A stretch of DNA of 47,775 nucleotides from an uncultured bacterium (GTDB lineage: Bacteria; Auribacterota; Erginobacteria; Erginobacterales; Erginobacteraceae), in the NCBI GenBank assembly GCA_937885075.1, contig CAKZYZ010000354.1, forward strand, positions 1 through 47,775, given 5' to 3'. Under the pieces are notes generated by a model. It was not told where the DNA came from, made no database searches, and saw nothing but the letters and a program-made list of their open reading frames with translations. Positions 1 to 36,046 of the stretch are shown piece by piece. Each line of letters opens with the position of its first letter. The stretch's first letter is position 1. A program made the position numbers and the translations under genes.

Positions 1-2
1 AG

Positions 3-845: not shown

Positions 846-871
846 CCCAATTTATTCATAAATTGGGTTAT
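842..871. terminator. Perfect 14-bp inverted repeat overlapping the regulator stop codon (terminator or operator)
   Basis: ATAACCCAATTTAT-TC-ATAAATTGGGTTAT followed by a short T run; the 2-nt spacer would also suit a protein-binding dyad. Confidence 0.45.
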
Positions 872-1179
872 TTTAAAAAAATGCCGGAGGTGTCATCGCC
901 GGCAACAATATAATGTGTTGATAATGAGTTATTTTTTCCTATGAGTTATTGCCCGATAATTCGAGAGAGCGTTCCACTCTGCCGGATCTTTTCTAAATGG
1001 CGGCTTCCGAAACGTCCTCCGCCAAGCATAACTGCTAAATGAGCAGTTGAAAGGCAGCGCGGACTTTTGGAACTTTTCTGTTGATTCGCAAGTATTTATT
1101 ACTCAAGTTCTATCCAGTTTCGAAAGTCAGGGGAGTATTTAATTAAATAGAATCGTGGCAAAAATTGGAGAAGAAAGTT

Positions 1180-2559: not shown

Positions 2560-2579
2560 TCCCGCCGATGGCGGGACTA
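2557..2579 (+). terminator. GC-rich hairpin at the mtmB stop
   Basis: TAGTCCCGCC-GAT-GGCGGGACTA; no long U tract, so it may be a REP-like stem instead. Confidence 0.4.
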
Positions 2580-2608
2580 ACGTTGAAAAATAAGAACGTT
2601 GAAAAGGG

Positions 2609-2842
2609 AGGGATCGGTAATCAGTAATCAGTGATCGGTGATCAGTCAACCGGGTGGCCGAGTGTTCTTTTCCTGACAACCGATTACCGCTTACCGATTA
2701 CTATCCTTTTAAAGGGGCCGAGGTAGGGGGATCAATCGGTGTTAATCCGTGTAATCCGTGGACAGAAAAGGGGGGGAGGTAGAGGGAAGCAATTAGTGCA
2801 AATTGGTGTAATTAGTGGACAGCAAAGCCGCCAAGCCAAGGT
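2609..2842 (+). repeat. Composite ~235-bp intergenic repeat, copy 1 (7-mer hairpin + GCCGAGG linker + two 9-mer modules)
   Basis: Near-identical colinear copy at 14719-14954; partial copies at 13311-13430 and 11950-12061. Confidence 0.9.
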
Positions 2843-2858
2843 TGAAGGAGCAGGACCA

Positions 2859-5150
2859 ATGAACAAAACCAGCGGATACAAGTATGTCGGAAAACCTGTT
2901 CTCCGGATTGATGTTCGGGAGAAGGTGACCGGCCAGACCAAATATTCTACCGATCTTTACTTTAAAGATATGCTTCGGGCGAAAGTTCTCAGAAGCCGCT
3001 ACCCCCACGCGAAGATTCTTAAGCTGGACGTGGAGAAAGCGAGGCGCCTTCCCGGGGTAGAGGCGGTTCTCACCCATGAAGACGTTCCCGGTCATAACGG
3101 CTTTGGAATTATCGAACCCAACTGGCCGGTCCTCTGTTCCGACCGGGTCCGTTACCGGGGGGACGCGATCGCTCTGGTGGCGGCGGTAGATGAGCGGACC
3201 GCCGAAGAAGCTCTCTCCCTGATCGAGGTGGAGTATGAACCGCTGGAAATTATCGATACCCCGGAGGAGGCTCTCCGTGAGAATGCTCCCCTGATTCATG
3301 AGGATGGGAATATCCTCCATACCATGGAGTTGAGCAAGGGAGACGCGGAGACGGGATTCGAAGAATCGGAGATTATCCATGAGAAGACTTATAATACCCA
3401 GTTCATGGAACACGCCTATATTGAGACCGAGGGTGGGGTAGCAATCTATAATGAAGATGACGGCGTTATCACCATCTGGTGCGGCAGCCAGTATGTTTTT
3501 CGCGATCAGCTCCAGGTAGCCCGCAGCCTTGACTGGGACCCCGAGAAGATCAGGGTTATTGGTTCTCCGGTCGGGGGTGCCTTCGGGGGGAAGGATGAGA
3601 TCAGCACCCAGATTCATACCGCGCTGCTGGCGCTCCATACAAAAAAACCGGTCCGTCTTCACTGGACCCGGGAAGAATCGATCGTGGTTGGTCCCAAGCG
3701 CCACGCGTTTAAGACTGATTTCAAGATTGGAATGAACAAAGCCGGCCATTTCCAAGTCATTGATCTATCTCTGGAAGCCAATGGTGGGCCCTACGATACC
3801 ATCAGTGGTCCGGTTCTCAATGTAGCGGTGGAAGTAGGGTCAGGTCCCTATCGGTATTCAAATTCACATATCAAGGGGGTGACAGTCTATACCAACAATA
3901 CGGTAGGAGGTGAATTTCGTGGATTTGGCGGTCCTCAGACTTCATTCGGTATGGAGCAGGAGATTGACCGGCTGGCCGAAGAGATCAAGATGGATCCGAT
4001 CGAATTTCGGCTCCATAACGCGGTGGAGAAAGGAGATATCTCTGTTATCGATCATGAATTAAAGACCAGTACCGGCACCAAAGCGACCCTGCGGGCCGCC
4101 CGGGATACCGACCTCTGGCGGAACCGGGAGAAGATCAAGCGTGATCTCGGGGAAAAGTATCCGGACTGCCAATTTGGTGTCGGGGTAGCGACGATCATGG
4201 TTCCGGTTGGACTGGGGGTTGGTATCCCCGACTTCGCCAATGTGGTAATTGAAATCGGTGAAGAAGGGAGCGTAACTCTACGGACCGGAGCGATTGAGAT
4301 CGGCCAAGGAAACCTGACCGCCTACGCCCAGATGCTGGCTGAATCGCTGGAGTGCGATATCGAAAAGATTGAAGTGATTCATGGAGATACATTTCTTACT
4401 CCTGATTCGGGGTCGGTCACCGCTTCTCGTTCAATTATGATGGTTGGGAACGCTATCCTTAACGGGGTGAAACAATTGATCCCCCGGTTGATATCCCTTG
4501 GCGCGGATCTCCTGGAAGTCCCGGAGGAAGAAGCGGAGTATGGCGGTGGCCGGGTCTCTCTGAAGAAAGATCCCGGCCGGGCGGTCACTATCGCCCAACT
4601 GGCTGATGCCGCGCTCCGGCGAAAAGATCCCTTGAAGGTTACCGGGACCTCTAATATGCCGGAATCGGATAAGGATTTTGGCGATGGCCTTCCCCATATC
4701 TGTTATACCTATAATACTCAGTTGGCCCTGGTAGGGGTTGATATGGGGACCGGTGAAGTTGAAGTTAGAAATACCATCTCACTCCCGCAGTTGGGAAGGG
4801 CGATAAACTCGGCCGGGGTGGAAGGGCAGTGTGAAGGTGCTACAGTAATGGGACAGGGGTACGCTCTTTACGAAGACGTAATAGTTAAAGAAGGGGAATT
4901 TAAAAATACCGGATTCTCCACCTATATTATCCCCACCTCTCTCGATGCTACCGATCATGAGACAGTGGTCGTTGACCTACCGGAGCTCGAAGGACCCTTC
5001 GGTGCCAAGGGGATCGGAGAAGCCTCCACCTGCACCATCGCCCCGGCCATCGCCAACGCCATCTATGACGCGGTAGGGATCCGATTCGATTCCCTGCCGA
5101 TTACCCCGGAGAAGGTTTGGAAAAAGATTAGGTTGGGCAGTGGGGAGTAG
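2859..5150 (+). CDS. Xanthine dehydrogenase/aldehyde oxidase family molybdopterin-binding subunit
   Basis: KVTG...Y, HAKI, GGAFGGK, FRGFGGPQ, EIGQG, GQCEG...GQGYAL, GAKGIGE motifs. ATG 2859 preceded by AAGGAG; the upstream ORF extension to 2739 lies inside the repeat. Confidence 0.93.
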   Translation: MNKTSGYKYVGKPVLRIDVREKVTGQTKYSTDLYFKDMLRAKVLRSRYPHAKILKLDVEKARRLPGVEAVLTHEDVPGHNGFGIIEPNWPVLCSDRVRYRGDAIALVAAVDERTAEEALSLIEVEYEPLEIIDTPEEALRENAPLIHEDGNILHTMELSKGDAETGFEESEIIHEKTYNTQFMEHAYIETEGGVAIYNEDDGVITIWCGSQYVFRDQLQVARSLDWDPEKIRVIGSPVGGAFGGKDEISTQIHTALLALHTKKPVRLHWTREESIVVGPKRHAFKTDFKIGMNKAGHFQVIDLSLEANGGPYDTISGPVLNVAVEVGSGPYRYSNSHIKGVTVYTNNTVGGEFRGFGGPQTSFGMEQEIDRLAEEIKMDPIEFRLHNAVEKGDISVIDHELKTSTGTKATLRAARDTDLWRNREKIKRDLGEKYPDCQFGVGVATIMVPVGLGVGIPDFANVVIEIGEEGSVTLRTGAIEIGQGNLTAYAQMLAESLECDIEKIEVIHGDTFLTPDSGSVTASRSIMMVGNAILNGVKQLIPRLISLGADLLEVPEEEAEYGGGRVSLKKDPGRAVTIAQLADAALRRKDPLKVTGTSNMPESDKDFGDGLPHICYTYNTQLALVGVDMGTGEVEVRNTISLPQLGRAINSAGVEGQCEGATVMGQGYALYEDVIVKEGEFKNTGFSTYIIPTSLDATDHETVVVDLPELEGPFGAKGIGEASTCTIAPAIANAIYDAVGIRFDSLPITPEKVWKKIRLGSGE

Positions 5151-5302
5151 GCAGTGGGCAGTGGACCGGCCCTGTAGCCGCGGTCGCTGACCGCGGATGG
5201 GGGAATGGGGAGTGGGCAGAGGTAGAAGCAGGGATGAGGAGGTAGGAGCAGGGAATGGCAGGGACTGAACGTCGAACTTCGAATGCCGAACTTCGAACGT
5301 CG
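5134..5302 (+). repeat. Repeat cluster at gene end: GGCAGTG 7-mers, a GTAG-type REP hairpin, TCGAAC 7-mers
   Basis: GGGCAGTGGGGAGTAGGCAGTGGGCAGTGG overlaps the stop; GTAG-CCGCGGTC-GCT-GACCGCGG near 5174; GAGGTAGAAGCAGGGA recurs near 13011; TCGAAC runs recur near 11890 and 41360. Confidence 0.7.
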
Positions 5303-5464
5303 CATAGCTTGCAGCGCCTCGCAAAATGTCTTCGGCACCGCAGGGTAAACCCCGTAAAATGATTTCGTCACCTCGTGGTAAAAATTCGTAGTTCTTTTTT
5401 ATTTAGCGAAGATTCGCGGTTTAATCACTTACAAAACTAAGTTATGGGAGGAGTATAATAACTC

Positions 5465-5779
5465 ATGGCTAAAGCGGAGATCAAACCAGGGATCTGTGGT
5501 TTTACCACCACGGTAGAGGTGTGTAAGACCGGGGTTCGTTCCTGTTCACTGACGGTTAAAAGCGACTGTTCCCACATCCGGGAACTGGCCTCGAAACTGA
5601 CCGAACTTGACCCCTTCCGGGAGATTGCATTTCGCGGGGAAGGGCCACTGGTCTTCCGGGAGGCAGCAAGAACTCTTCCTCATCCCGCCTGTCCGGTTCC
5701 GATCGGGATCATCAAAGCGATCGAGGTGGAAGCCGGTCTGGCCCTCCCCCGGGATGTGGAGATAAGGTTGAGCAAGTAA
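5465..5779 (+). CDS. Small conserved Cys-containing protein (DUF6951-like)
   Basis: PGICGF...SDC...HPACPVP...IEVEAGLALP pattern; GGGAGGAG RBS upstream. Confidence 0.7.
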   Translation: MAKAEIKPGICGFTTTVEVCKTGVRSCSLTVKSDCSHIRELASKLTELDPFREIAFRGEGPLVFREAARTLPHPACPVPIGIIKAIEVEAGLALPRDVEIRLSK

Positions 5780-6074
5780 AGAATGAATAAATACTCTTAC
5801 GATTGCTTGGCGGCGGTTGAAAAAGAAAACGCGCTTGAATAAAAAGCGGTACTACCCCGGTAGTGCCGCTTTTCTGATACTCCCCCATATTGTTCTATTA
5901 TCCCCGCCTCTTCCCATGTTATAATTCGCTCCAGAGGATAAAAATTTAGCGCCTTCGGCGCTAACGTTAAAAAATAAAGCCGTTGAAGAATAAGAACGTT
6001 GAAGAAAAAAAACGTTAAACGCCCAGCAAAATGCGGAGCGGCTACCATCATCACGAAATTTATGGAGATAATAA

Positions 6075-8566
6075 ATGACTCTTCAGTACCTTGGACAAAA
6101 TCTTTCCCGGCCTGACGCGTTTGACAAAATAACCGGGGCGGCCACTTATCTTGATGATATCCGCCTTCCCGGTCTTCTTCATATGGCGGTTCTCCTCCCT
6201 GAAGACGCGCACGCGATAATCCGTTCAATCGATGTAACCGAGGCTGAAAGGTCTCCGGGGGTAGTACAGGTGGTTATCGGACGTGATTGCCCATCCCGTC
6301 ATGGGATCGATTTTCGGGACCGGCGGCCGCTGGCGGTCGATCGGGTTCGCCACGTCGGTGAACCGGTGGCGGCGGTTATCGCTGAAGATGTCCGTCAGGC
6401 CCGTCTCGCCGTCCATAAGATCCGGGTTGAGTATGAGCAGTTACCGGTTTACACCGATGGACGCGCGGCCATGGCGGGTGGAGCTATCTTGATTCATCCG
6501 GAGACCGACCCGGAAGAGTATCCCGCCAGCTGGAATCATCTTCCCGGGACCAATATTGTCAATCATCAGGTACTGAAGAAGGGGAACCTCGATCAGGGGG
6601 TTGCCGATTCCGATATTACTGTCGAAGGTGAATTTAATTATCCGTTTTCCGTCCCCGGAGCGATTGAACCGCATGGAGCGATTGTCTGGTTTAAAGGGAA
6701 TGGGATAATTGAGGCGTGGCTCTCCTGTATCCGTCCCTTCATGGTAAGAAAAATGCTGGCTGAGATTTACCATCGGCCGGTAAGCTCCGTCCGGGTACAC
6801 GTCCCGGAGGTGGGAGGATGTTTCGGGGATAAATCCGGAACTCACTTTGTCTTTACGGTGGCCGCGGCGGCCAGCCGTATCCCCGGCCGGCCGGTTAAAT
6901 GGTTTGCTACCCGCAAAGAATCTTTTCTCTGCGGTTCGATCGGAAATGGGATCAGAACTCGTCTGAAGATCGGCGCTGATTCCAGAGGAAATCTCACCTT
7001 CTTTAAAGGAGTCGTCCATCACTCGGTAGGGGCATATTCTGACATAGGGAGCGGTGTGATGACAGCCGCCCTGGCGAATATCACGGGCCCGTATGAGGTT
7101 CCCAATTACCAACTGGAAGGATCTTGTGTCTATACCAATACGCCCCCGGTCGGGGCACTCCGCGGCTTCGGCAACCAGTCGGCCTTTTTCGCCACGGAAA
7201 GGCTGATGGATATGCTGGCAAAAAAATTGAAGATGAATCCGGTCCGCTTGCGGGAGATAAATCTTCCGCGAGCCGGTCAGGGGAATCATCCCGGTGACCT
7301 GGGGGATGTTGGTGGATGTGTAAGTATCGTTGCCGAGAAACTTTATCCCCGACCCAAGCCGGTTGAGGATGAATTGTATTTTTACGGGCGCGGTTTTTCC
7401 GTTCTTAGAAAAACCCCCGGTCCGACCGGATTCTACGGCCGGAGCTGTTATCTGAAATTCAATGGAGATGGATCCGTAACTTTAAATTTCGGAACAGTGG
7501 ATATGGGAGGGGGGCATCGCAATGCCATGCGCCAGATCGCGGCGGAAACGCTGCGGATCTCTCCGGAGAGGATTACGGTCTCCTCCGATATCGATACCCA
7601 GACATCTCCCTGGGAGTGGCAGACAGTGGGCTCGCTTTCGGTTTTACTCTGCGGGCAGGCGGTGGTCGAGGCCGCCGGGAAGGCGATTGAACTATTGAAA
7701 GAGACCGCCGCCCGGGTTCTTGGATGTCCATCGGGCCAGCTTAGCTAGACCTTACTCGAAAAGCCTTTTAAACCACGAAGAACACGAAGTTCACGAAGGA
7801 ATTTGAAGAAACAAAGGAAAATTCCATAGTTTTCTTTGTTTTTCTTCGTGTTCTTCGTGACCTTCGTGGTGAATATTTAGTTTTTTAGCACAGAATGTTA
7901 AAAATACCTTTTCGAGTACGGCCTAGCTACGATGGTGAACAGGTCTTCAAAACGTCCGATCCCGCGGTTCGGGTTCCAGTCGCCGGTCTGGCGCACGGTT
8001 TTCGCGATGAGTCGGGAAGGACGATCGGTGGTGAGATCCAGACCACATCAAATGTACATCTGGATAACCGGTTCCTCCCCGGTCGGGACGGAGGAGGACA
8101 GTTTGAATCAGTCTTTATCTATGGCGCCCAGGGGTGTGAACTGCGGATCCATAAGGAGACCGGGCGCGTAATCATCGATCACTTTATCTCGTCTTTTGAT
8201 GTGGGCCGGGTTATCAATCCCCAACAGATCCGGGGGCAGGTAACCGGCGGCGTGATGATGGCGCTTGGCGCGGCGTTGAACGAAGAACTGAAATTTGATC
8301 GACTGGGAAGACCCCTCAATCCATCCTTCGGCCGGTATCGCTTGCCGACTATCTCCGACGCGCCGCTCAGGCAGACGATTGAGTTTGTGGAGACCCCGTT
8401 AGAGATCGGCCCTTTCGGAGCCCGTCCGATCGGAGAGGGGACGGTGGTGGGAGTAACCCCGGCGATTCTGAACGCTATCGCCGACGCGACCGGAATCCAG
8501 TTCTACGATCTCCCGGTCACCCCCGACCGGATCAAGGCGGCCTTGAAAAATGCATCGGGATTTTGA
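6075..8566 (+). pseudogene. Second xanthine dehydrogenase family Mo subunit, interrupted by a MITE
   Basis: ORFs 6075-7748 (GGCFGDK, LRGFGNQ) and 7895-8566 (DVGRVINP, GQVTGG, GARPIGE) join in frame (..GQLS-YDGEQV..) when 7748-7929 (182 bp) is removed, giving 769 aa. Confidence 0.9.
7748..7923. mobile_element. 176-bp MITE-like insertion
   Basis: 16-bp TIRs GACCTTACTCGAAAAG / CTTTTCGAGTACGGCC (2 mismatches); TAGCTA duplicated at 7742-7747 and 7924-7929; internal 9-mer periodic hairpin CCACGAAGAACACGAAGTTCACGAAG...CTTCGTGTTCTTCGTGACCTTCGTGG. Confidence 0.9.
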
Positions 8567-8772
8567 TTTAAGATGGTTTTGGATCATGGCATCGCCTTTG
8601 TTGCCCATTAAGAATAGGCAATAAATGGGCAGAATTATATGATTGTCATCAATATATTTATGTGAGAAAATATTTAATCTAGTACTACGCTCCCGCGTGG
8701 TAATGTTTAGCCGTATGTCCCTGTTTTGTAATTTTTCCGAGAACCATCCGGATCCCGATTTATTCAAAACAT

Positions 8773-8820
8773 AATAATTTTTACAAAGTAAAAATTATTG
8801 TCCCGGTTGAATCAACCGGG
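8773..8820. promoter_or_regulatory. Two adjacent perfect palindromes upstream of the amidohydrolase-ABC operon (candidate operators)
   Basis: AATAATTTTTAC-AAA-GTAAAAATTATT (8773-8799) and CCCGGTTGA-A-TCAACCGGG (8802-8820) in an AT-rich intergenic region. Confidence 0.4.
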
Positions 8821-8857
8821 GCCGGATAAAGTAGCGAACGAAGGAGCTAATTTATAA

Positions 8858-10345
8858 ATGAAAGACAGACGATTCATACTGGCCCGGACCAGGCTTCTGG
8901 TCCCGTTGAGTGACGCGCTGGGAGAGGATACCCGGATTACCGACGGGTATGTCCTGACCGACGGTTCCCGGATTAAAGAGGTGGGTTGCTACTCTCCAGA
9001 ACGGGGGAGAGAGATTGTCGCGGAGTGTGGCAGCGAGCTACTGGTCCTGGGAGCGGAACCGAAGGACTCATATTCCGAGGAGGATATCCCGATGCTTGAC
9101 GGGGTGGCCCTTCCCGGATTTATCAAGTGCCACGGGCACGACCATGAGTCGCCGATCATCGGGATCTCCAAGGATGAGCCACTGGTTGACTGGCTTGATC
9201 ATACCGTAAATATGTTTACCGGCTTTATGAATACCCGGAGGGAAGAGTTGACCGAACGCTTCGGGAAGTCACCCAATCTGATCCCTTACCTTAAGGCCCG
9301 CCTTGACGATATCCACTACGGGATTACCTCCTGCCTGGTAAATCATACCAGTTTCAACAAATACCGGATTGATGATCTGGTCTCTGCCAATCTGGCGTCC
9401 GGGAGTAAGATGACGATCGCGGTAGGGAGTTCCGATCAGAACTATGACCCGCGGGTAATGGAGACAATCGATCAGGCGGTAGATCGCCTGGAGCAGGCGC
9501 AAAAATCGTTTGGCGAGACCGAAAGGGTCGAGATCATCCCCGGCCCGGATCAGATATTTTCCAACAGCCCCGAGATGCTCTCCGCCCTGAAGAATTGGGC
9601 CGACCGTTACGGCAAACTGGTCCACGTGCATAGTTCCGAGGAGCCGGATACCACCCGGTGGTTCGCTGAAGAGTACGGCAAAACCCCGATTGAGATGGCC
9701 GCGAGCGCGGGTTTTCTAAATTCATACACCCTCCTGGCCCACCAGTGCAACAGTACCGACCGAGATCTGGAGATAATCCGGGAGTCGGGCGCGACCGTGG
9801 TCCACAACCCGCTGGCCAATACCATCATCGGCGATGGGATGCCGCCGATCATCCGGATGATGGAGATGGGTATCCCGGTCGTGATCTCCACCGATGGCGC
9901 CGGGGCGGCCGACAATCAGAACATCATCAACGCCGCCCGCCTGGCCGCCCAGTATCAGAAAGCCTATCACCGGGATGCCACGCTCCTCCCCTCACTCACC
10001 CTGCTGAAGATGATCACCGTTGACGCGGCCCGGGCCCTCCGGTTAAACGCGGGACGGCTGGAAGAGGGCAAAGACGCCGATTTCATCATCCTCGATCTCA
10101 AACCTTCGAACCTGGTCCCCAGCCGGGCCGACAATATAATTGAAAATATTATTTGGGCCGCGGACGGCAATGAAGTACAATGGATGGTAGCTAACGGACT
10201 GTTGCTCCGGGATGACTATCGGGCAGTCCGCCTGGACGAGAAGATGATCAAAAAAGAAACCCAGCAGCTCTCGGAATTAATGATTGAATTCAGGGATCGC
10301 ACGGAAGAGATTGTCGCCACCGGGATAAGAGGTGAACAGAACTGA
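8858..10345 (+). CDS. Amidohydrolase family metal-dependent deaminase (MTA/SAH or purine deaminase-like)
   Basis: LPGFIKCHGH (HxH), HVHSSE, LAH, HNPLAN, STDG, GRLEEGKDADF motifs. Confidence 0.9.
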   Translation: MKDRRFILARTRLLVPLSDALGEDTRITDGYVLTDGSRIKEVGCYSPERGREIVAECGSELLVLGAEPKDSYSEEDIPMLDGVALPGFIKCHGHDHESPIIGISKDEPLVDWLDHTVNMFTGFMNTRREELTERFGKSPNLIPYLKARLDDIHYGITSCLVNHTSFNKYRIDDLVSANLASGSKMTIAVGSSDQNYDPRVMETIDQAVDRLEQAQKSFGETERVEIIPGPDQIFSNSPEMLSALKNWADRYGKLVHVHSSEEPDTTRWFAEEYGKTPIEMAASAGFLNSYTLLAHQCNSTDRDLEIIRESGATVVHNPLANTIIGDGMPPIIRMMEMGIPVVISTDGAGAADNQNIINAARLAAQYQKAYHRDATLLPSLTLLKMITVDAARALRLNAGRLEEGKDADFIILDLKPSNLVPSRADNIIENIIWAADGNEVQWMVANGLLLRDDYRAVRLDEKMIKKETQQLSELMIEFRDRTEEIVATGIRGEQN

Positions 10346-11499
10346 AAAACCGTTTCCAGCTCAGTAAGGCGATTGCCAACCTCACGCCGATAGGGGCTCT
10401 CATCCTGGCCCTGATGGTCGGGGTGGTGATGCTGGTGCTGATGGGGGTCAACCCGATTATCGCCTTCGGGGCTCTCCTTAACGGGGCCTTCGGTAATAAG
10501 TTCGCCCTGGCCAACACGGTGGTAAAAGCGACCCCGATCCTCTTTGTCGGCCTGGGGATCTGTATCTCTTTCCGGGCCGGAGCCTTGAATATCGGAGGGG
10601 AAGGGCAGTTGGTGGTTGGCGGCCTCGCGTCTATCTCGATCGCCCTGGCGATACCGGAATGGCCCGGCTGGATGGTTATCACCTTAGCCTGTCTGGGAGG
10701 GATGATCGCCGGAGCGATCTGGGGCGGAATCGCCGGGGTGCTCAAGGCCTATTTTAAAGTAAATGAGGTCCTCTCCACGATCATGCTCAACTATATCGCC
10801 GTCTATCTGATGACCTTTCTAATCCACGGCGTATTGATGGACCCGAAACAGAGAGAGAGCGGATCCTTTATCCCGGAGACGGCGCGGATCGCCCGATCCT
10901 GCGACCTGCCCCGTCTTATTCCCACCCGTGCCCATCTGGGGATTGTGATCGCGATTGTCTTAGCCTTCGCGGTCTATCTCTTTCTCTGGCGGACCACGAT
11001 CGGGTTTCGCCTCCGCATGGTGGGAAAGAGCCCACGGGCCTCTCTCAACGCCGGAGTCAATGTCAAGAGTTACACGATCCTGGCACTTCTGCTGGGCGGG
11101 GCCTTCGCCGGACTGGGAGGCGCGGTAGAGATACTGGGGACCCGCTATAATATGTTCACCGATAGTTCGATGTCCTGTTTCACCTCCAGCGCGGGCTTCA
11201 ATGGAATTGTGGCTGCCCTCTTCGGGCAGCTTCATCCGATCGGGGCTATCCCGGCCTCATTCCTGCTGGGCGCCCTCCTCTCCGGGGCTCAGAAGATGCA
11301 GCGGGTGGTCCAGGTACCCTCCGCCCTGATCGGGACATTGAACGGTTTAATAGTCCTTTTCGTGGTAGGGAGCGAGGTCATCCGCCGGCGTCTCTCATCC
11401 CGGGCCGAGCTTTCGGCGGAGAAAGAAGCCGACTTCAAAAGGCCTGATGACTCGGACTTCGAAGAGTCCGGACAGGACGGAGAAGACGGTAAGCAGTAA
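10342..11499 (+). CDS. Nucleoside/sugar (CUT2/Nup-type) ABC transporter permease; probable CTG start
   Basis: NIGGEGQ, NEVLSTIMLNY, GFNGIVAALFG motifs. Frame is open back to CTG 10342, overlapping the upstream TGA, with GAGGTG 7 nt before; first ATG is 10414. Confidence 0.85.
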   Translation: MKNRFQLSKAIANLTPIGALILALMVGVVMLVLMGVNPIIAFGALLNGAFGNKFALANTVVKATPILFVGLGICISFRAGALNIGGEGQLVVGGLASISIALAIPEWPGWMVITLACLGGMIAGAIWGGIAGVLKAYFKVNEVLSTIMLNYIAVYLMTFLIHGVLMDPKQRESGSFIPETARIARSCDLPRLIPTRAHLGIVIAIVLAFAVYLFLWRTTIGFRLRMVGKSPRASLNAGVNVKSYTILALLLGGAFAGLGGAVEILGTRYNMFTDSSMSCFTSSAGFNGIVAALFGQLHPIGAIPASFLLGALLSGAQKMQRVVQVPSALIGTLNGLIVLFVVGSEVIRRRLSSRAELSAEKEADFKRPDDSDFEESGQDGEDGKQ

Positions 11500-12073
11500 A
11501 CAGTAAACAGTAAGCAGTAATCTGTGAGCGGTAAGCGGTTGGCCGAGCACCGTAGTGTTGATTTTACCGCTTACTGCTAACTGTTTACCGCTTACTATTT
11601 TTGACAGGACGATTAAGAAAGCAAAAAAACTTAAAGGCAGGACGATTACAGGCAGGACGATTAAAAAAGCAAAGAATTAAAGGCAGAATGATTACGGGCC
11701 CCGAATGGAATTAGGGGGGGACTTGAATGATTAAAAGATAGACTGATTAAAATTGGAATAAATATAGGCAGAATAACAATTGGGATGTTGTTTTAATATT
11801 TTTAAAAGCAGGTGCGAGGTGAGGCTAATCATTCTGCCCGTAATCATTCTGCCTTATAAGGGGCCGAGGTGGGGGGCAGTATAAAGACTGAACATCGAAC
11901 GTCGAACGCTCAACTTCGAACGTCGAACGAAAAGAGGCTGAGGCAAGGCATCAATTAGTGTGAATTAGTGTAATTAGTGGACTGCAAAGCCGCCAAGCCG
12001 AGGCGTAACAATCAGAGTAATCAGAGTAATCCGTGGACAAAAAGGGGCCGAGGTAGGGGGAAATAGTCCTGTC
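11488..12073 (+). repeat. Nested modular intergenic repeat array between the two permeases
   Basis: GTAAGCA 7-mer hairpin (11488-11597), GACAGGACGATT and GGCAGAATGATT arms, their inverse AATCATTCTGCC and AATAGTCCTGTC, TCGAAC and ATTAGTGTA/ATCAGAGTA modules separated by GCCGAGG linkers. Confidence 0.85.
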
Positions 12074-12084
12074 AGAGCAAAGCT

Positions 12085-13005
12085 ATGTTGAAAGAAACAA
12101 TAATCGGAATCGCCGGATCGGGGATCCGACTGGCTACGCCCTATCTCTATGCCGCGATCGGGGAGGCCTTCGGGCAGCTCTCCGGGGTGCTCAACTTAGG
12201 CGTTGACGGGATCATGCTGATGGGCTCCTTCGCGGCCTTCTTCGTAGCCTTCAAGACCGGGAGTCTGCTCCTGGGGCTTCTGGCGGCGGTTATCGTAGGC
12301 GGTCTGATGGGGCTCTTCATGGCCTTTATCAGCGTGACCATGCAGGCGGAGCAGGGGATCAGCGGGATTGGTCTCTACCTCTTCGGGTTGGGATTGAGCG
12401 AGTTGCTCTTCAAGAAGATGCTGGGAACGGTGCAGACCGTAAATGGCTTCGCGCCGGTGCCGATCCCGCTGCTGGCAAAGATCCCGATTCTGGGGGAGAT
12501 CTTCTTCCAGCAGAATGTCCTGGTCTACGGGGCGTTTCTTCTGGTGCCGGTGGCCTGGTTTGTTATCAACAAAACACCATTAGGGCTCAAGGTCCGGGCG
12601 GCGGGCCAGAATCCGCAGGCGGCGGACTCCCTGGGGGTGAATATCAATCGGGTCCGTTATCTGGCGGTAACGGTGGGGGGAATGCTCGCCGGGATAGCCG
12701 GAGCATCGCTCTCGATCGCTCTCCTTAATCTCTTCCAGCAGAATATCACCAACGGGATGGGATTTATCGCGGTGGCACTGGTCTATTTCGGACGCTGGCG
12801 CCCGATGGGGATACTGGTAGGGGCGCTCCTCTTCAGCATGGTCAACGCCTTTCAGATCTGGGCCCAGGTCCAGGGGATCGGAATACCGCCCGACTTCATG
12901 CTGATGATCCCCTATATTATTACCATTGTGGTCCTGGCGGCAATGGTGAAACAGCGTGTCCGGAGTCCGGCGGCGCTGAATAAGCCGTTTGAGAGAGGAG
13001 AATGA
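12085..13005 (+). CDS. Nucleoside/sugar ABC transporter permease (second subunit)
   Basis: GE...SGVLNLGVDG, GLKVRAAGQNP.AADSLG, GMGFIAVALV.FGRW.P motifs. Confidence 0.9.
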   Translation: MLKETIIGIAGSGIRLATPYLYAAIGEAFGQLSGVLNLGVDGIMLMGSFAAFFVAFKTGSLLLGLLAAVIVGGLMGLFMAFISVTMQAEQGISGIGLYLFGLGLSELLFKKMLGTVQTVNGFAPVPIPLLAKIPILGEIFFQQNVLVYGAFLLVPVAWFVINKTPLGLKVRAAGQNPQAADSLGVNINRVRYLAVTVGGMLAGIAGASLSIALLNLFQQNITNGMGFIAVALVYFGRWRPMGILVGALLFSMVNAFQIWAQVQGIGIPPDFMLMIPYIITIVVLAAMVKQRVRSPAALNKPFERGE

Positions 13006-13010
13006 GTCAA

Positions 13011-13465
13011 GAGGTAGAAGCAGGGAAAAGCAGGGAGAAGAACAACAAGTTTAAAGTGCCTAAAGTGCGCTAAAGTGCCTAAAGTTGTTCGCTTTCGCCT
13101 AGATTTCAGGCTTCTGGCTTCAAAGAAAATAGATACGAGACAGGGGATAGCGGAATGTCCAATATCCAACGGCCAATAACCAATCTCCAAATGCGAATGG
13201 CCAACATTGCAGGTGAATTTGGAAATCAACCTTCGCTAAATCCCCGAAACAAGTTCGGGATGCAAGCACTTTGGCGGACCTGTTGGAAATTCATTATGGG
13301 GCCGAGGGAGGGATTGGTAATCAGTAATCAGTGATCGGTAATCAGTCACCGGGTGGCTGAGTGTTCTTTTACTGGTAACCGATTACTGATTACTGATTAC
13401 TATCCTTTTAAAGGGGCCGCGGCAGGGGGGATTCTTGCGTATTTTGCGTCTTTTTGCGGCTAATA
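13011..13465 (+). repeat. Modular intergenic repeat array
   Basis: TAAAGTGCC 9-mers (13051-13086; inverse copy 21405-21440), CCAAT 7-mers, GTAATCA hairpin (13311-13405), linker and TTGCG module. Confidence 0.8.
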
Positions 13466-13698
13466 TAGGAGCCGGGGGGGAGTTGTTTGATTTTTGATGC
13501 TTGTAATTTCTAATTAATCCGCGGCTGCCGCGAAGATACCGGACAGGAGGTGATGATCAGGCAGCAGAGAAAAAGCTGGAATTGAATTTAACCGGCGAAA
13601 AAGTCATGCCTGTTTCTCAAAATTATTCGTCGAAAGCAAAAGTTTTAACAATTATCTTATTTTTCCGGAGGAAAAATAAGATAGGGAGGAGAGAAAGA

Positions 13699-14673
13699 AT
13701 GAAATTAAGGAATTTAATAGTAGGGTTAGTCGCGCTGGCGCTGATATTGACCGGGCTCACCTCGGGCGCCGAGGCCAAACCGTTCCGGGTAGCCTGGGTC
13801 ATGCCCAGTACCATCAACGATTACGGTTGGTGCCAGTCTTTTTATGAAGCTCTGGTTGAGATTCAGAAGGAGATGGGGGGAAAAGATAAATTTGAATTCA
13901 CTTATTCCGAACTTCTCTTCATGCTGGATGACGCTGATGCCGCGATCCGAGATTATGCCAGCCAGGGATATGATCTGGTTGTAGCTCATGGCTCCCAGTA
14001 CGGCAGTCTCCTCAAGAATATCGCTCCGGATTTCCCTGAAATCAGTTTTTGCTGGGGTACCGGCGGAGATCCTTTTACCGATCTGGGGATCAAAAATGTC
14101 TTTGGATACAGCAACCTGGCTGATCAGTCCGGTTTCGCCATGGGCGCTCTGGCGGGAAAATTAACCAATAGCGGAATCATCGGCTGGGTTGGTCCGGTTG
14201 AGGCCAGTTCAACCAAGTCATTCGCCGATGGTTTCAAAAAGGGGGTTAAATATACCAATCCCACCGCCAAGGTTAATGTAACCTGGACCGGTTCCTACTC
14301 CGACCTGGCTCTGGCCTCCGAGGCGGCCCAGGCCCATATCGCCGCCGGCGCCGATGTACTGGCCGGTCACGCTCAGATCCAGGTAGCCATTATTAACGCC
14401 TGCGCGCAGAAAGGGGTATATTTTCTCGGTGCTCAATCCAATCAGATCCCCTTCAAGCCTGATACCGTAGTAGCGAGTCAGGTCAATATGTGGAAGGTAG
14501 CACTGGCGCCAATGATTAAGGCGATTCAGGGCGGCAAACTGGGCGGAGAAAAATTTGAGCTGACTTTAGAGAACGGTGGCCAGGTGATTGTGGTTAACGA
14601 TCCGCTGCTGCAGAAGGCCTTCATCGGTGATACCGTCCAGAAGATCATCGACGGCAAGATCAAGACGGACTGA
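13699..14673 (+). CDS. BMP family ABC substrate-binding protein (purine/nucleoside type)
   Basis: Signal peptide; INDYGW, YASQGYDLVVAHG, GWVG, GSYSD motifs; ATG 13699 with GGAGGAG RBS. Confidence 0.9.
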   Translation: MKLRNLIVGLVALALILTGLTSGAEAKPFRVAWVMPSTINDYGWCQSFYEALVEIQKEMGGKDKFEFTYSELLFMLDDADAAIRDYASQGYDLVVAHGSQYGSLLKNIAPDFPEISFCWGTGGDPFTDLGIKNVFGYSNLADQSGFAMGALAGKLTNSGIIGWVGPVEASSTKSFADGFKKGVKYTNPTAKVNVTWTGSYSDLALASEAAQAHIAAGADVLAGHAQIQVAIINACAQKGVYFLGAQSNQIPFKPDTVVASQVNMWKVALAPMIKAIQGGKLGGEKFELTLENGGQVIVVNDPLLQKAFIGDTVQKIIDGKIKTD

Positions 14674-14689
14674 ACAAGAAGTAAGGGAC

Positions 14690-15070
14690 GAATATCCAAT
14701 GACCAATGTCCAATATGAAGGGATCGGTAATCAGTAACCAGTGATCGGTGATCAGTCAGCCGGGTGGCCAGGTGTTCTTTTACTGATAACTGATCACCGC
14801 TTACTGATTACTATCCTTTTGAAGGGGCCGAGGTAGGGGGATCAATCAGTGCAAATCTGTGTAATCCGTGGACAAAAAAAAGGGGGGGAGGTAGGGGGGG
14901 TAAATTAGTGTACATTAGTGTAATTAGTGGACTGCAAAGCCGCCAAGCCAAGGTGAAACAATTCGCGCAATTCGTGTAATTCGTAGTTCATTTAAGCGAC
15001 CGGCCGAAGCGAAACAATCAGAGTAATCCGTGTAATCTGTGGACAAAAAGAAGGGGCCGAGGTAGGGGGA
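14690..15070 (+). repeat. Modular intergenic repeat array including composite repeat copy 2
   Basis: 14719-14954 matches 2609-2842; further ATTCGTGTA and ATCCGTGTA modules; exact 20-mer AAGGGGCCGAGGTAGGGGGA at 14822 and 15051. Confidence 0.9.
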
Positions 15071-15103
15071 AACAAAAGAAGTAATCAGTGGACTGAACCG
15101 AAG

Positions 15104-16657
15104 ATGACTACCGACCAGACAGCAATCAATTTAATCAAGGTGGACTCCCTGGAGGCCCGGGGGATCGTGAAACGATTCCCCGGGGTCCTGGCCAACGACC
15201 ATATTGACTTCGAAGTCCATGCCGGTGAAGTACATTCGCTCCTGGGAGAGAACGGAGCGGGCAAGTCCACCCTGATGAAAATCCTCTACGGGATGTATCA
15301 GCCCGACGAGGGGGAGATTTTGGTCAACGGCAAGGTGGTCCGGATCCGTTCCCCTCTCGACGCCATGAGCCACGGGATCGGAATGGTCCATCAGCACTTC
15401 ATGCTGGTTCCGACCCTTACGGTGACCGAGAATATAGCTCTGGGTCTTCCTTCCTCGCGGAAAGTTCTTCTGGACCTGGACGTGGTGGCCCGGCGGATTG
15501 AGGAGTTGGCTGCTATCTATCATCTCCAGATAAACCCCAAAGCGCCGGTCTGGCAGCTCTCAGTGGGGGAGCAGCAGCGGGTGGAGATCCTGAAGGTTCT
15601 CTACCGGGGCGCTTCGGTCCTGATCCTGGATGAGCCGACCGCGGTCCTGACCCCCCAGGAGGTGGATGGTCTCTTCAAGACTCTCCACAAGATGGTGGCT
15701 CAGGGCCACGCCCTGGTCTTTATCAGCCACAAGCTCTGGGAGGTGATGGCTCTCTCCAATCGGGTGACGGTACTTCATACCGGGCGGATGGTAGGAGAGT
15801 TGCCGATTGAGGAGGCGGACGAGAGGAAGCTGGCCAGTATGATGGTGGGGCGGGATTTTCTGATGCGGGTGGATCATCCGGAGGTGGAGATGGGGGAGGT
15901 TCATCTGGAGCTGAAAGGGATCCGGGCTCTGGGGGAGAGCGGACTGGAGTCGCTCAAGGGAGTTGATCTCCGGATACGGTCCGGTGAGATCCTGGGATTG
16001 GCCGGGGTTTCGGGGAACGGACAGCGGGATCTGGCCGAGGTGATCGCCGGGTTGAGACCTCCGACGGCCGGGGAGGTCTTCATGGAGGGGGTGGACGTGA
16101 CCGGCTGGACCCCGGCGAAACTACTGGAGCACGGTCTCTCCTATATCCCGGAGGCGCGGATGGTTGATGGAACAGTGGGTGATTTTTCTGTTTCGGAGAA
16201 TCTGATTATGAAGGATCATACCTACCCACCCTATGCCGATGGAATCTTCATGAACTTCAAGAATATCGCGAAAGAAAGCAAGCGATTGGTCGAGACATTC
16301 GATATCAAGACCCCTTCCATAGCTACTCCGATCAAGAACCTCTCCGGGGGGAATATCCAGAAGCTGATTCTGGCCCGGGAGATATCGAGAGGACCGCGGG
16401 TACTGGTCGCGGCCCAGCCGACCCGGGGACTGGATATCCGGGCAACCGAGTATGTGCGGCGGCGGATCACCGAGCAGCGGGAGAAGGGAGTTACCACGCT
16501 CCTGATTTCGGAGGATCTCGATGAGATTCTCTCGCTCTCCGACCGGATCGCGGTGATCTTCGAGGGAGAGATCATGGGGGTGGTGGACCGGGATGATGCC
16601 ACGTTTGAGAATTTGGGGCTGATGATGGGGGGGAGGAAGATGGAGACTGAAGAATGA
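15104..16657 (+). CDS. ABC transporter ATP-binding protein (tandem ATPase, CUT2 type)
   Basis: GENGAGKSTL, LSVGEQQRVE, LILDEPT, second domain LSGGNIQK, QPTRGLD. Confidence 0.95.
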   Translation: MTTDQTAINLIKVDSLEARGIVKRFPGVLANDHIDFEVHAGEVHSLLGENGAGKSTLMKILYGMYQPDEGEILVNGKVVRIRSPLDAMSHGIGMVHQHFMLVPTLTVTENIALGLPSSRKVLLDLDVVARRIEELAAIYHLQINPKAPVWQLSVGEQQRVEILKVLYRGASVLILDEPTAVLTPQEVDGLFKTLHKMVAQGHALVFISHKLWEVMALSNRVTVLHTGRMVGELPIEEADERKLASMMVGRDFLMRVDHPEVEMGEVHLELKGIRALGESGLESLKGVDLRIRSGEILGLAGVSGNGQRDLAEVIAGLRPPTAGEVFMEGVDVTGWTPAKLLEHGLSYIPEARMVDGTVGDFSVSENLIMKDHTYPPYADGIFMNFKNIAKESKRLVETFDIKTPSIATPIKNLSGGNIQKLILAREISRGPRVLVAAQPTRGLDIRATEYVRRRITEQREKGVTTLLISEDLDEILSLSDRIAVIFEGEIMGVVDRDDATFENLGLMMGGRKMETEE

Positions 16658-16684
16658 ACTTCGAACTAAAACAAAAAGACAATT

Positions 16685-16945
16685 AGACAAGACGATTTAG
16701 GGACAGGACGATTAAAAGCAAAAAGAATTGTGGCAGGACGATTATAGGCAGGACGATTAAAAAGCAAAAAAACTTAAAGGCAGAATGATTACGGGCAGAA
16801 TGATTAAAAAGCAAAGGAATTAAAGGCGGAATGATTAAAAGAAAAATAATATAGCCCGAGGCGAGGCTAATCATTCTGCCCCAAATTATTCTGCCTTAAA
16901 AGGCCCGAAGTGAGGCAAATCGTCCTGACTGTAATAGTCCTGCCA
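16685..16945 (+). repeat. Nested inverted repeat array (CAGGACGATT outer arms, CAGAATGATT inner arms); empty GxxExxY-type site
   Basis: Tandem ~45-bp left units, then GCCCGAGGCGAGGC-TAATCATTCTGCC and GCCCGAAGTGAGGC-AAATCGTCCTG right arms. Confidence 0.85.
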
Positions 16946-17147
16946 TAAAAAAGGGGGTGAAGTGGGGGGAGAAGGATCAGAAAGTGACAACTTTAAATCA
17001 GGACAATTTTGGATATTGGGTATTGGTTGACTTCGCCAAGGATACGGCGGACAAGTTGAAAATTTAATAAGGAGGTAGTGAATGGTTTAGATGAAGTAGT
17101 ATTGTGATAAAATCGGGTTAAATGTCTAAACGAATGGAGGAGAAGTC

Positions 17148-18185: not shown

Positions 18186-18213
18186 TCCTTTAAAATTTAA
18201 CCTACCATCGAAT

Positions 18214-18252
18214 AAAGCCCGTTTCTGCCCGGCGGGGCGGAAGCGGGCTTTT
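18214..18252. terminator. Probable bidirectional intrinsic terminator between convergent operons
   Basis: AAAGCCCGTTTCTGCCC...GGGCGGAAGCGGGCTTTT stem with A/T tails. Confidence 0.7.
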
Positions 18253-18326
18253 GCCCATAATAGCTTTTATTATTCCCGGCGTCGACGCGCTGAATAAATT
18301 TGCCCGAACGAAGTGAGGGGAAGTTC

Positions 18327-25667: not shown

Positions 25668-25676
25668 TTTACTTGT

Positions 25677-26474: not shown

Positions 26475-26476
26475 TT

Positions 26477-26627
26477 AATCGCCCTGTCTTCAAATCTTTT
26501 TGTCTTTTAATAGTCCTGTCTGCAATCGTCCTGTCTTCAAATCTTTTTGTTTTTTAATAGTCCTGTCTGCAATCGTCCTGTCTTTAAATCTTTTTGTCTT
26601 TACATAGTCCTGTCTTAAATCGTCTTG
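26477..26627 (-). repeat. Upstream flanking array of the GxxExxY gene (about three 47-bp tandem units)
   Basis: AATAGTCCTGTCTGCAATCGTCCTGTCTTCAAATCTTTTTGTC units fill the gap from the radical SAM stop to the nuclease start. Confidence 0.9.
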
Positions 26628-26629
26628 CA

Positions 26630-35502: not shown

Positions 35503-35641
35503 TCCCCCAGATCTTATCCCTCGCCTTTGGCTTGGGCAACTTTAACAGCTTAGGAAATCATGAAATCAGGAAGTGATTCTCCCCCAACCTGCCCCCACTT
35601 ATGGGGCAGAACCATTGCCCCCACCTTCTCCCTCTTCTTAT

Positions 35642-35953
35642 GACAGGACCATTGCAGTCAGGACTATTAGCCTCGCCTCGGCCTTTATTTCTCTTTGCCG
35701 TTAATAGTCCTGTCTGCAATCGTCCTGTCTTAAGTCTTTTTCCGTTAATGGTCCTGTCTGCAATCGTCCTGTCTTAAGTCTTTTTGCCGTTAATGGTCCT
35801 GTCTGCAATCGTCCTGTCTTAAGTCTTTTTCCGTTAATGGTCCTGTCTGCAATCGTCCTGTCTTAATTCTTTTTGCCTTTAATGGTCCTGTCTGCAATCG
35901 TCCTGTCTTAAGTCTTTTTGCCGTTAATAGTCCTGTCTGCAATCGTCCTGTCT
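35642..35953 (-). repeat. Six tandem 44-45-bp units plus inverted arm; empty GxxExxY-type site
   Basis: CCGTTAATRGTCCTGTCTGCAATCGTCCTGTCTTAAGTCTTTTT(G) x6 from ~35698; inverted GACAGGACCATTGCAGTCAGGACTATT-AGCCTCGCCTCGGCC at 35642-35683. Confidence 0.92.
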
Positions 35954-36046
35954 CAAATTTTTTCGTCTATTGGATATTCCTTGTTGAATATTGGATATGT
36001 AGTTCCCCGTTCCCAATCCCCATTCCCCAAATTTGTGCCAAAGGCG

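Follow-up and report, generated by a model that had tools for sequence, protein, structure and literature searches.

The 47,775-nt contig analyzed here, referred to as the window (GenBank CAKZYZ010000354.1, assembly GCA_937885075.1, from an uncultured bacterium of the family Erginobacteraceae, phylum Auribacterota), contains intergenic arrays in which short periodic modules are joined by a purine-rich linker. These arrays are part of a system of intergenic mosaic repeats that extends over the genome and is restricted to the lineage. The same module sequences also occur as inverted arms that bracket small genes of the GxxExxY nuclease family. This association is tight and clade-specific, with antisense modules upstream of the nuclease gene and sense modules downstream, in the window's family often together with linkers. 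The explanation that we favor with modest confidence, based on sequence comparison, is that the arrays are gene-less, amplified arm units of nuclease-associated palindromic elements, whose units are exchanged at the linkers. Such a system would resemble that of repetitive extragenic palindromic (REP) doublets forming hairpins (REPINs) and REP-associated tyrosine transposases (RAYTs), with a different enzyme.

A previous, sequence-only reading of the window had proposed shuffled modules between positions 2609 and 15070, joined by a conserved GCCGAGG linker. The exact 20-mer AAGGGGCCGAGGTAGGGGGA reported at 2712, 12042, 14822, and 15051 was found at all four sites; for the reported variants, GCCGAGG was present at 11863, 11997, and 13301 and looser forms were readable near 13416, 14947, 16853, and 16902. 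With up to three mismatches, AAGGGGCCGAGGTAGGGGGA had eight matches in the window, all on the + strand, versus 0.02 expected from 100 shuffles. The bare heptamer GCCGAGG was not enriched in the window (13 occurrences versus 9.1 ± 3.2 in shuffles) and its description as the conserved linker could not be maintained; the conserved core is AAAGGGG-NN-GAGG-NN-GGGGG, with nine window matches versus 0.35 expected. A linker profile, built with the first GGG behind B modules as anchor (161 modules, 119 of which had a GGG within 14 nt), read AAA GGGG [C/G][C/G/A] GAGG [T/C][A/G/T] GGGGG A. Its G-runs and GAGG were conserved, while the 'CC' and 'TA' dinucleotides were the most variable positions and 'CC' the weakest part. 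Some variants consisted of purines only, e.g., AAGGGGGAGAGGTAGGGGGA, and the linker lacked inverted symmetry. All periodic modules named earlier were recovered in the window, as was the reported duplication: 2609-2842 is colinear with 14719-14954, with 210 of 236 alignment columns identical by manual count of the conservation line. A third copy of the hairpin of this block lies at 13312-13405.

The window represents contig C354 of genome G000 (4.41 Mb in 434 contigs, 87% complete, 50% G+C), for which gene starts and open reading frames (ORFs) were obtained with a crude caller (3513 ORFs, 81.5% of the genome). The genome-wide motif scan proposed in the earlier reading yielded 35, 90, 205, and 339 linker copies at 0, 1, 2, and 3 mismatches, respectively, the last number being spread over 144 contigs, and no matches to a reversed-pattern control; the phenomenon is therefore not local to the window. 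Nearly every base of the gaps flagged in the window belonged to sequence repeated 15 to >127 times in the genome. Across the genome, 14-mers that occur at least eight times made up 28% of non-ORF DNA (230 kb) versus 2.1% of ORF DNA, and recurrent 14-mers covering at least 40 nt were present in 1301 of 2445 gaps of at least 30 nt. In a 41-genome sample of the phylum, linkers with up to two mismatches were found in all eight same-family genomes (1 to 58 copies) and in the single sister-family genome, and in none of the 31 other genomes. Exact copies occurred in metagenome-assembled genomes (MAGs) titled PVC group bacterium, uncultured bacterium, and Candidatus Erginobacter occultus, a member of Candidatus Auribacterota, and the same module types were present in relatives. 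In the available main text of PMC9324843, which names these MAGs, a term search for 'repeat' and 'intergenic' returned neither word.

The array unit consists of a periodic module, in which a 7-14-nt word is present in two to four imperfect direct copies, and of a purine-rich linker behind it that resembles a Shine-Dalgarno (SD) sequence. Linker-to-linker spacing peaked at 50-58 nt (68 pairs) and near 112 nt. The proposed role of the linker as module junction stood insofar as it is, genome-wide, the hub of a combinatorial mosaic, with seven module types before it and nine after it (A 31, B 29, C 5, D 11, E 47, F 18, G 13, I 4, and K 36 times). A module was mostly followed by B (59 times), via the variant linker AAAGCCGCCAAGCCGAGGCG. 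This grammar is non-random but combinatorial. Inside arrays, antisense A, C, or F units were absent, and one antisense B and one antisense D unit were found. Two classes of elements can be distinguished. Structured palindromes with periodic arms comprise heptamer hairpins (folding z −4.2 to −8.7), the CACGAAG element (z −8.7), and the E composite (z −8.9); the second class consists of unstructured, direct [module][linker] arrays. In 39 arrays across the genome, mean fold z was +0.85 and 74% of the values were above 0. Hairpins were confined to H, E, I, and CACGAAG elements, and arrays of linkers (L) with A, B, and D modules folded worse than shuffles. The left arms of the palindromes carry antisense modules with spacers that are A-rich rather than complementary to the linker, as a result of which both arms are purine-rich on the same strand.

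A link to an enzyme family was found within the window. The protein encoded by ORF 25677-26474 matched TIGR04256 (E 8.9e-23, 80.9 bits, cut-off 35) and PF13366 (E 1.2e-24, 87.4 bits, cut-off 22), and its gene is preceded by antisense E modules and followed by sense E modules and linker variants. The earlier description of the arrays as 'gene-less' was thus half correct, since modules also form the arms around GxxExxY nuclease genes. Genome G000 contained eight PF13366 matches. All eight genes had flank inverted-repeat scores of 33-59 (250-nt flanks), versus a median of 17 and a 95th percentile of 28 for 316 control genes. Their arms (Table 1) belonged to the abundant module families B, E1/E2, E3, and CACGAAG and matched 4-143 places in the genome. 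In the related genome G005, one gene was flanked by CCATCACATCCAATCGTCTGT arms in antisense and in sense, the downstream side carrying seven units and linkers, and a second gene had four antisense C modules upstream. Linker-like motifs within 300 nt of 16 genes from the family were found in sense orientation downstream (7) or upstream (2), and never in antisense orientation; for 10 genes from other families, a single downstream motif was found.

Bracketing was not restricted to the window's family. Twenty further loci from 20 other genomes of the phylum gave 17 scorable genes, 16 of which scored above the highest value (24) of 54 neighbor-ORF controls. Their arms were mostly located 0-40 nt from the ORF and were composed of periodic words, including the D-like TCTTTGCG. 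Protein similarity and arm similarity were correlated over 26 elements (Mantel r 0.54; 0 of 5000 permutations as high). Among plasmids of other phyla, eight records matched and four genes were examined, two of which were directly bracketed. A Bernardetia plasmid gene had 28-nt CACAGAGA-periodic arms on both sides. Plasmid pTS1 of Treponema saccharophilum (L148 555-1015) carries an annotated GxxExxY gene, whose product was 53% identical to the C390 protein of G000 and which is bracketed by CACGGATTCG / CGAATCCGTG, corresponding to the B-module word AATCCGTG. The Gemmatirosa gene had an adjoining periodic hairpin and, for the Persicobacter gene, bracketing was unclear. The window element itself (25570-26629) was missing from relatives: in the 1.5 kb past the orthologous radical-SAM gene of five relatives, a motif test on ORFs of at least 70 amino acids flagged no GxxExxY ORF, and in three of the five the same next gene followed after 25 (G006), 183, or 221 nt, the other two being without confirmed synteny.

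The G, E, Y, and K residues of the GxxExxY proteins were invariant, and the D and E of the catalytic-type triad (D...ExK) were present in at least 90% of 18 sequences. An AlphaFold model of P0001, the 129-amino-acid paralogue encoded on C390, had a predicted local distance difference test score (pLDDT) of 93.1. Its best Foldseek match was the Cas4 protein SSO0001 (4ic1; E 2e-4, template-modeling score 0.58), followed by lambda-exonuclease types. The proteins are thereby predicted to have a Cas4-like PD-(D/E)xK fold (alpha-beta-beta-beta-alpha-beta core). A sequence search of the PDB with the nuclease profile gave no matches. In the available part of a superfamily survey (PMC3424549), the function of PDDEXK_3 is given as 'Unknown', and among the publications listed for GxxExxY, PDDEXK_3, PF13366, or TIGR04256 in a limited paper collection, none concerned repeats according to title and start of abstract.

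Turnover of the arrays was analyzed at the same locus in contigs L040, L041, and L042, which were syntenic with the window and originated from one metagenome scan. L040 and L041 were 99.6% identical, without an indel over 11.8 kb. Genes on the three contigs were 83-91% identical in DNA sequence to those of the window, and those of L040 and L042 87-96% identical to each other. Between window and L040, every operon gap contained different elements, while short stretches with real SD sequences were conserved; the 586-nt array before 12085, for example, corresponded to a gap of ~190 nt in L040, with a hairpin and without linker. The gap before the ATPase gene in L040 and L042 had a hairpin, a linker, an F module, and a B-like module in common. 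The earlier expectation that relatives would differ by whole units at linkers was borne out in part: between L040 and L042, one D-plus-linker unit was gained or lost with breakpoints inside linkers, and, with the linkers on either side conserved, a D module was swapped for one of A/C type. Slippage by one 7-nt period within an F module and nested inserts inside a G module showed that not all breakpoints lie at linkers. Together, these differences supported the earlier statement that more than simple slippage is involved. In L042 (6905-7440, corresponding to window 13006-15103), the binding-protein gene 13582-14673 was missing and a single repeat-filled gap connected the permease and ATPase genes, which may reflect a deletion between arrays. 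Comparison of gap 8566-8858 with relatives did not reveal a clean single insertion with target duplication, the gap being too diverged. An L009 array upstream of a xanthine-dehydrogenase-type homologue (57% protein identity) was not used, since orthology was unclear.

The nested inserts are small GC-rich hairpins (~24-38 nt, three families) within periodic modules, found at C25:16692-16747, C71:32823, C250:10885, and L040 8330-8885, and have the appearance of tiny mobile insertions. Elhai et al. in 2008 reportedly described small dispersed repeats of Nostoc that lie inside heptamer repeats; this likeness accounts for the nested inserts only, and not for the linker arrays.

The unit indel and module swap at linkers, as well as the position of the linker as grammar hub, are also what would be expected of a site-specific cassette system, in which a dedicated recombinase inserts or exchanges units at the linker, as in integrons at attC/attI. 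Integron arrays likewise consist of ordered, exchangeable units with a common junction sequence. However, the units described here are without genes and occupy hundreds of gaps, the linker has no palindromic or attC-like structure and can be purely purine, Y1 transposase genes do not adjoin the arrays, and some breakpoints lie inside modules. No integrase-type machinery was seen linked to the arrays, although no search was aimed at an integron integrase. We therefore regard a cassette system, the likeness drawn in the sequence-only reading, as very improbable. A CRISPR array was rejected because the 'spacers' are themselves repeated 15 to >127 times.

Recombination between 20-nt linker copies would produce the same breakpoints without a need for a nuclease. 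In its full form, this alternative holds that the arrays are selfish or neutral mosaic repeats shuffled by homology only, through unequal crossing-over, gene conversion, or template switching between linkers, and that GxxExxY genes, either of a homing type or hitch-hiking, settled in the loops of pre-existing palindromes. Consistent with this alternative, exact tandem blocks in linker register were found on C67 and C273 and in G005 (arrays of 58 and 123 nt), and the 7-nt slip indicates that ordinary slippage occurs. Numbers of GxxExxY genes did not track those of linkers (12 genes and 1 linker in G001, 8 and 205 in G000), and gene-less copies exceeded gene-bearing ones by more than 10 to 1. 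It is less easily reconciled with the tight bracketing of all 8 local genes and 16 of the 17 foreign ones, mostly at 0-40 nt from the ORF, or with the correspondence between arm type and protein clade, which extends across families and as far as a Treponema plasmid. In addition, identical units in hundreds of unlinked gaps need some means of transfer. Shuffling by homology alone is, in our assessment, unlikely, while retaining appreciable weight.

Several of these points, namely the breakpoints expected from linker recombination and the disparity in gene and linker numbers, also weigh against the explanation by amplified nuclease arms, as do the following. Adjacent units were not clearly more alike than distant ones (E 0.13 versus 0.18, 7 pairs; reverse for A/B, 4 pairs). 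The correlation between proteins and arms partly reflects common descent. Modules A, F, G, H, I, and J were found around none of the nuclease genes examined. The genes C390 of G000 and C30b of G005 (C30:19450-19785; L037 7421-7813) belong to two genera; both lie between cysD-like and cysN-like genes and encode proteins with 52% identity, but have B and C arms, respectively, so that arms may change around a resident gene. Finally, the crude gene calling and the outcome of the search for RNase J (TIGR00649 best 23.5 bits versus a cut-off of 400, in an 87%-complete genome) count on the same side.

Orientation of the repeats relative to genes was strongly biased. In co-directional gaps, 134 linkers were in sense and 15 in antisense orientation (~9:1); a further 54 were in convergent and 27 in divergent gaps, and 52 of the 339 fell in called ORFs. 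Sense/antisense numbers for modules were 53/5 (A), 74/9 (B), 16/2 (D), 46/9 (G), and 36/2 (I). A and B modules were more common in divergent (14 and 19) than in convergent gaps (5 and 7), whereas the hairpin classes E and H favored convergent gaps (32 convergent versus 6 divergent for the class of hairpin 2612..2710). Where gene direction and local GC skew were in conflict, the linker followed the gene in 21 cases and the skew in 2, a weak control since genes themselves influence the local skew. In sense orientation, array DNA contained 32% A, 32% G, 16% C, and 20% T.

Pairing of the linkers with ribosomal RNA was evaluated with the 16S 3' end, GGAUCACCUCCUUU. A peak of GGAG/AGGA 9-13 nt 5' of ATG codons indicated that canonical SDs are in use. 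Linker/anti-SD duplexes had a mean energy of −10.4 kcal/mol (339 linkers), versus −4.6 for random 20-mers. An SD 4-mer of their own was found for none of 18 ATG genes whose last sense linker ended 14-36 nt upstream, for 15 of 23 genes with a linker at 40-60 nt, and for 41.6% of 1949 genes overall. Past D modules, a real SD and start codon often took the place of the linker, also in G005. The last linker thus appears to stand in for the SD. CsrA was rejected as a reader of the GGA motifs, PF02599 not being found in the 87%-complete genome.

These observations are consistent with a role in RNA, in which SD-like linkers and unstructured, A/U- and G-rich modules recruit or hold 30S subunits (standby, distant SD, or re-initiation over long intercistronic distances), shield mRNA, or avoid loading of Rho. 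The sense bias, the anti-SD pairing, the genes without an SD of their own behind a nearby linker, and the true SDs in linker position all fit this idea, as do arrays that are less structured than their composition explains, are C-poor in a genome that encodes Rho, and occupy the gaps of an ABC-transporter operon. Precedents exist in STAB-SD (PMC4113751) and TAACTGA repeats (PMC4679880), as far as the available text of these papers extends. Yet the arrays were not conserved among relatives with 83-91% DNA identity, whereas real SD regions were; 54 linkers lie in convergent gaps, i.e., in 3' regions; real SDs in this organism are AAGGAG rather than G-runs; and RNase J was not found above cut-off. 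As the primary explanation of the arrays, an RNA role is rather unlikely, though by no means negligible.

The ~9-10-bp period of modules, close to the helical repeat of DNA, could alternatively point to operator- or iteron-like binding sites for transcription factors or nucleoid proteins, with the linker proximal to promoters. The excess of A and B modules in divergent over convergent gaps and a promoter-like box behind E arrays are in line with such a function. Hundreds of copies in mixed order, their presence inside operons, and their turnover between close relatives are not, and the purine-rich sense-strand spacers in both palindrome arms point to RNA rather than duplex DNA. A consensus promoter/terminator scan of the window was uninformative: it gave 20 hits versus 11.4 ± 3.4 in shuffles, none of them in arrays, with a loop limit that excludes long hairpins. 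We consider DNA-level binding arrays highly unlikely.

According to the explanation by amplified nuclease arms, each cognate nuclease would bind its own periodic module and cut nearby. Repair by recombination among the many linker copies could then add, delete, or swap whole units, a step that fits the unit gain, loss, and swap seen in same-locus gaps of relatives. Arrays would ride on mRNAs in sense orientation as G/A-rich, C-poor, unstructured RNA, with linkers able to pair with the anti-SD tail of 16S rRNA. In the opposite orientation, they would yield C-rich, anti-SD-like, and Rho-prone RNA; such copies are rare and are probably removed by selection. The sense bias would accordingly reflect what mRNAs tolerate or use.

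This layout has counterparts among known repeats. In the available parts of PMC2817692 and PMC3116915, REPs, bacterial interspersed mosaic elements (BIMEs), and REPINs are described together with RAYT (Y1) transposases. High-copy extragenic mosaics, enzyme genes bracketed by their own repeats, many gene-less copies, and a repeat type for each paralogue are shared with the REPIN/RAYT system. The enzyme differs, being a PD-(D/E)xK-type GxxExxY protein instead of a Y1 transposase. Arms are periodic direct repeats instead of one short palindrome, and direct arrays do not form the hairpin units of REPs; in contrast to the alternating units of BIMEs, array units are co-oriented and joined by a shared purine-rich linker. 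A direct link to RAYTs was rejected: there were 20 PF01797 (Y1_Tnp) matches, the 19 flanks examined had their own ends or classical REPs and none had linker arrays, and Y1_Tnp counts in relatives did not follow linker counts. Most Y1_Tnp ORFs encoded ~250-350 amino acids and had GGGGTC..ACC-type inverted ends (e.g., C361:25755-26753), while the short ORFs C207:453-923 and C219:8777-9343 lay among classical REP-like hairpin arrays.

Cyanobacterial short tandemly repeated repetitive (STRR) sequences are a further counterpart, alongside heptamer repeats of the TAACTGA type. TAACTGA and related heptamer direct repeats occur in Beggiatoaceae, cyanobacteria, and Bacteroidetes (PMC4679880). Like the present arrays, they are short, direct, forward-oriented intergenic repeats near start codons that often lack an SD, with period-size indels between strains. 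The available text of that paper describes them without linker, module mosaic, or associated gene, whereas periods of 7-14 nt, about ten module families, and a nuclease gene between inverted copies were found here. Mycobacterial interspersed repetitive units (MIRUs; available text of PMC12548453) resemble the arrays as ~50-nt tandem units in operons, oriented with genes and located at start codons; little harm to expression is a feature of MIRUs. MIRUs differ in having a short ORF translationally coupled to the host gene; none was seen here, where no search for one was made and where modules hold stop codons in two frames by manual reading. STAB-SD, a 5' mRNA stabilizer (accessible part of PMC4113751), is likewise an SD-like sequence at a distance from the start codon and capable of pairing with the 3' end of 16S rRNA, but is a single element that blocks RNase J1 instead of hundreds of reiterated copies.

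Elements of the window are listed in Table 1. Genes 10414-18185 form a BMP/PnrA-type ABC-transporter operon with arrays in its intercistronic gaps, and further arrays lie outside the range noted earlier, at 25570-26640 and 35560-35990. In array 2711..2858, each position had 63-127+ genome copies; its RNA was unstructured (z +1.2; 178 of 200 shuffles folded as well or better) and its variant AAAGCCGCCAAGCCAAGG runs into a true SD, GAAGGAG, followed by ATG 2859. Array 11808..12084 ends at ATG 12085, without a separate SD past its last linker, and array 14719..15103 ends at ATG 15104, its part 14955-15103 being unstructured (z +2.2). The left arm 11601..11700 pairs with 11826-11855 (I15, 20 nt, 100% complementary), and its A-rich spacers are not the complement of the linker. 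Past 13500, a stretch with a real SD was kept in L040, whereas array 13045..13465 was not; the hairpin of the latter had a folding energy of −49.9 kcal/mol (z −8.7). E-type composite 16685-16975 folded at −95 kcal/mol (z −8.9; 0 of 200 shuffles folded as well; inverted repeats I3 and I6) and is followed at 16975-17005 by a conserved box, GTGACAACTTTAAATCAGGAC, found at 66 places in the genome. This box regularly lies behind the last linker of E-type elements, and its layout resembles −35 / spacer / −10. Element 7750-7925, flanked by TAGCTA at either end, interrupts a gene for a molybdopterin-binding subunit, leaving ORFs 6075-7748 and 7895-8566; the gene is continuous and the element absent in L040 and L042, and its CACGAAG arm type also flanks the GxxExxY gene on contig C299. 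A search of window 1-20000 against Rfam in E-value mode gave only microRNA-model matches to hairpins, all below gathering scores.

Table 1. Repeat elements and nuclease-gene arms in the window (contig C354) and on other contigs of genome G000; L, linker; L', variant linker.
Element	Position	Strand	Remarks
Heptamer-periodic-arm hairpin (GTAATCA type), then CCTTTT	2612..2710	+	Fold −33.3 kcal/mol, z −4.2; inverted repeats; opens duplicated block
Array linker - B (AATCCGTGT x3 + GGACAG) - linker - A (AATTAGTG x3) - variant AAAGCCGCCAAGCCAAGG	2711..2858	+	
Miniature element of ~175 nt, CACGAAG-periodic hairpin arms, outer inverted ends	7750..7925	+	z −8.7; arm type at 141 genome places
Heptamer-arm hairpin (AGTAAAC type) over stop codon of permease gene	11487..11600	+	−50 kcal/mol, z −6.0; inverted repeats I2/I4
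Antisense E-type modules GGCAGGACGATT, GGCAGAATGATT with A-rich spacers	11601..11700	+	Left arm of long interrupted palindrome
Linker variant - E3 - linker (11858) - G (TCGAAC periodic) - variant - A - variant - B - linker (12042) - partial E	11808..12084	+	Module string ELGGABL
J module TAAAGTGCC, CCAAT-heptamer hairpin with nested insert, hairpin 13312-13405, linker (13411), D (TTTTGCG x3)	13045..13465	+	
Second block copy (hairpin - L - B - L - A - L'), then C - L' - B - linker (15051) - partial B	14719..15103	+	Module string HhLBLACBL
Gene-less E-type composite palindrome	16685..17005	+	Left arm antisense modules and A-rich spacers; right arm sense modules and linker variants
Right arm of gene-bearing element: sense E modules and linker variants, directly past nuclease stop codon	25570..25676	-	Arm alignment score 53 versus control 95th percentile 28
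GxxExxY / PDDEXK_3 nuclease-family gene, 265 amino acids	25677..26474	-	Inside E-type palindrome
Left arm: antisense E modules GACAGGACGATTGCAGACAGGACTATT, A-rich spacers	26475..26629	-	Ends 33 nt short of start codon
Gene-less E-type composite: six antisense units, then sense units and linker variants	35560..35990	-	Module string eEEEEEE; sense of flanking minus-strand genes
Nuclease gene and arms, contig C390	C390, 13266-13656		One antisense B unit, gene, five B units with variant linkers, then A and linker
Nuclease arms, C262	C262		AATCTGTGT
Nuclease arms, C88	C88		AATCCGTATAATCCGCGG
Nuclease arms, C299	C299		CACGAAG, 141 genome places
Nuclease arms, C17	C17		CCTTCCTGC
Nuclease arms, C354 and C250	C354, C250		E1/E2, 106-143 genome places
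Nuclease arms, C426	C426		E3

Directly 5' of the first array, ORF 1165-2559 gave a full-length match to MtmB (monomethylamine methyltransferase; E 3.4e-80) in this bacterial MAG. When contigs of four sequencing runs were compared with the window, repeat bins had 10-100 times the depth of gene bins and many joints to other copies, and the runs yielded no usable population indels in arrays. In all four runs, the highest summed contig depth was that of bin 12908-13108, which contains the TAAAGTGCC module (108-483, genes having 2-10); either the module is very abundant, or it is common to other organisms in those samples. Illumina adapter-like sequence (AGATCGGAAGAGC...) was present at the ends of contigs C34, C45, C163, and C388, often directly behind a repeat unit, and also past some modules. 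The assembly breaks at these repeats and keeps the adapter.

For decades, short periodic intergenic repeats have been recorded, among them STRR sequences, TAACTGA repeats, and tandem heptamers, but no consensus exists on how they arose. In the genome studied here, about 7% of the sequence and more than half of the intergenic gaps are built of such units. Their location in operons and their turnover between close relatives mean that they affect gene-start calling, operon prediction, MAG assembly in this phylum, and readings of regulation. The coincidence of repeat sequences with the arms around a small nuclease family, named in annotation yet uncharacterized, provides a candidate enzyme, and suggests a repeat-plus-enzyme partnership, not described before, that reshuffles intergenic DNA. 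The SD-like linker, moreover, represents a natural experiment in the tolerance of mRNA to reiterated look-alikes of ribosome-binding sites. A wider proposal, which we advance tentatively and consider possible rather than probable, is that GxxExxY nucleases, a widespread family, act in bacteria as the enzymatic partners of short periodic tandem repeats. A word of 7-14 nt would be recognized by each paralogue as its own, and the paralogue, located between inverted arrays of this word, would drive copying, amplification, and exchange of the arrays, in this lineage at a G-rich linker that mimics an SD and is tolerated or exploited by hosts. If true, this would constitute a second symbiosis of the REPIN/RAYT kind, with a different enzyme, and could explain heptamer, STRR, and TAACTGA-type repeats elsewhere.

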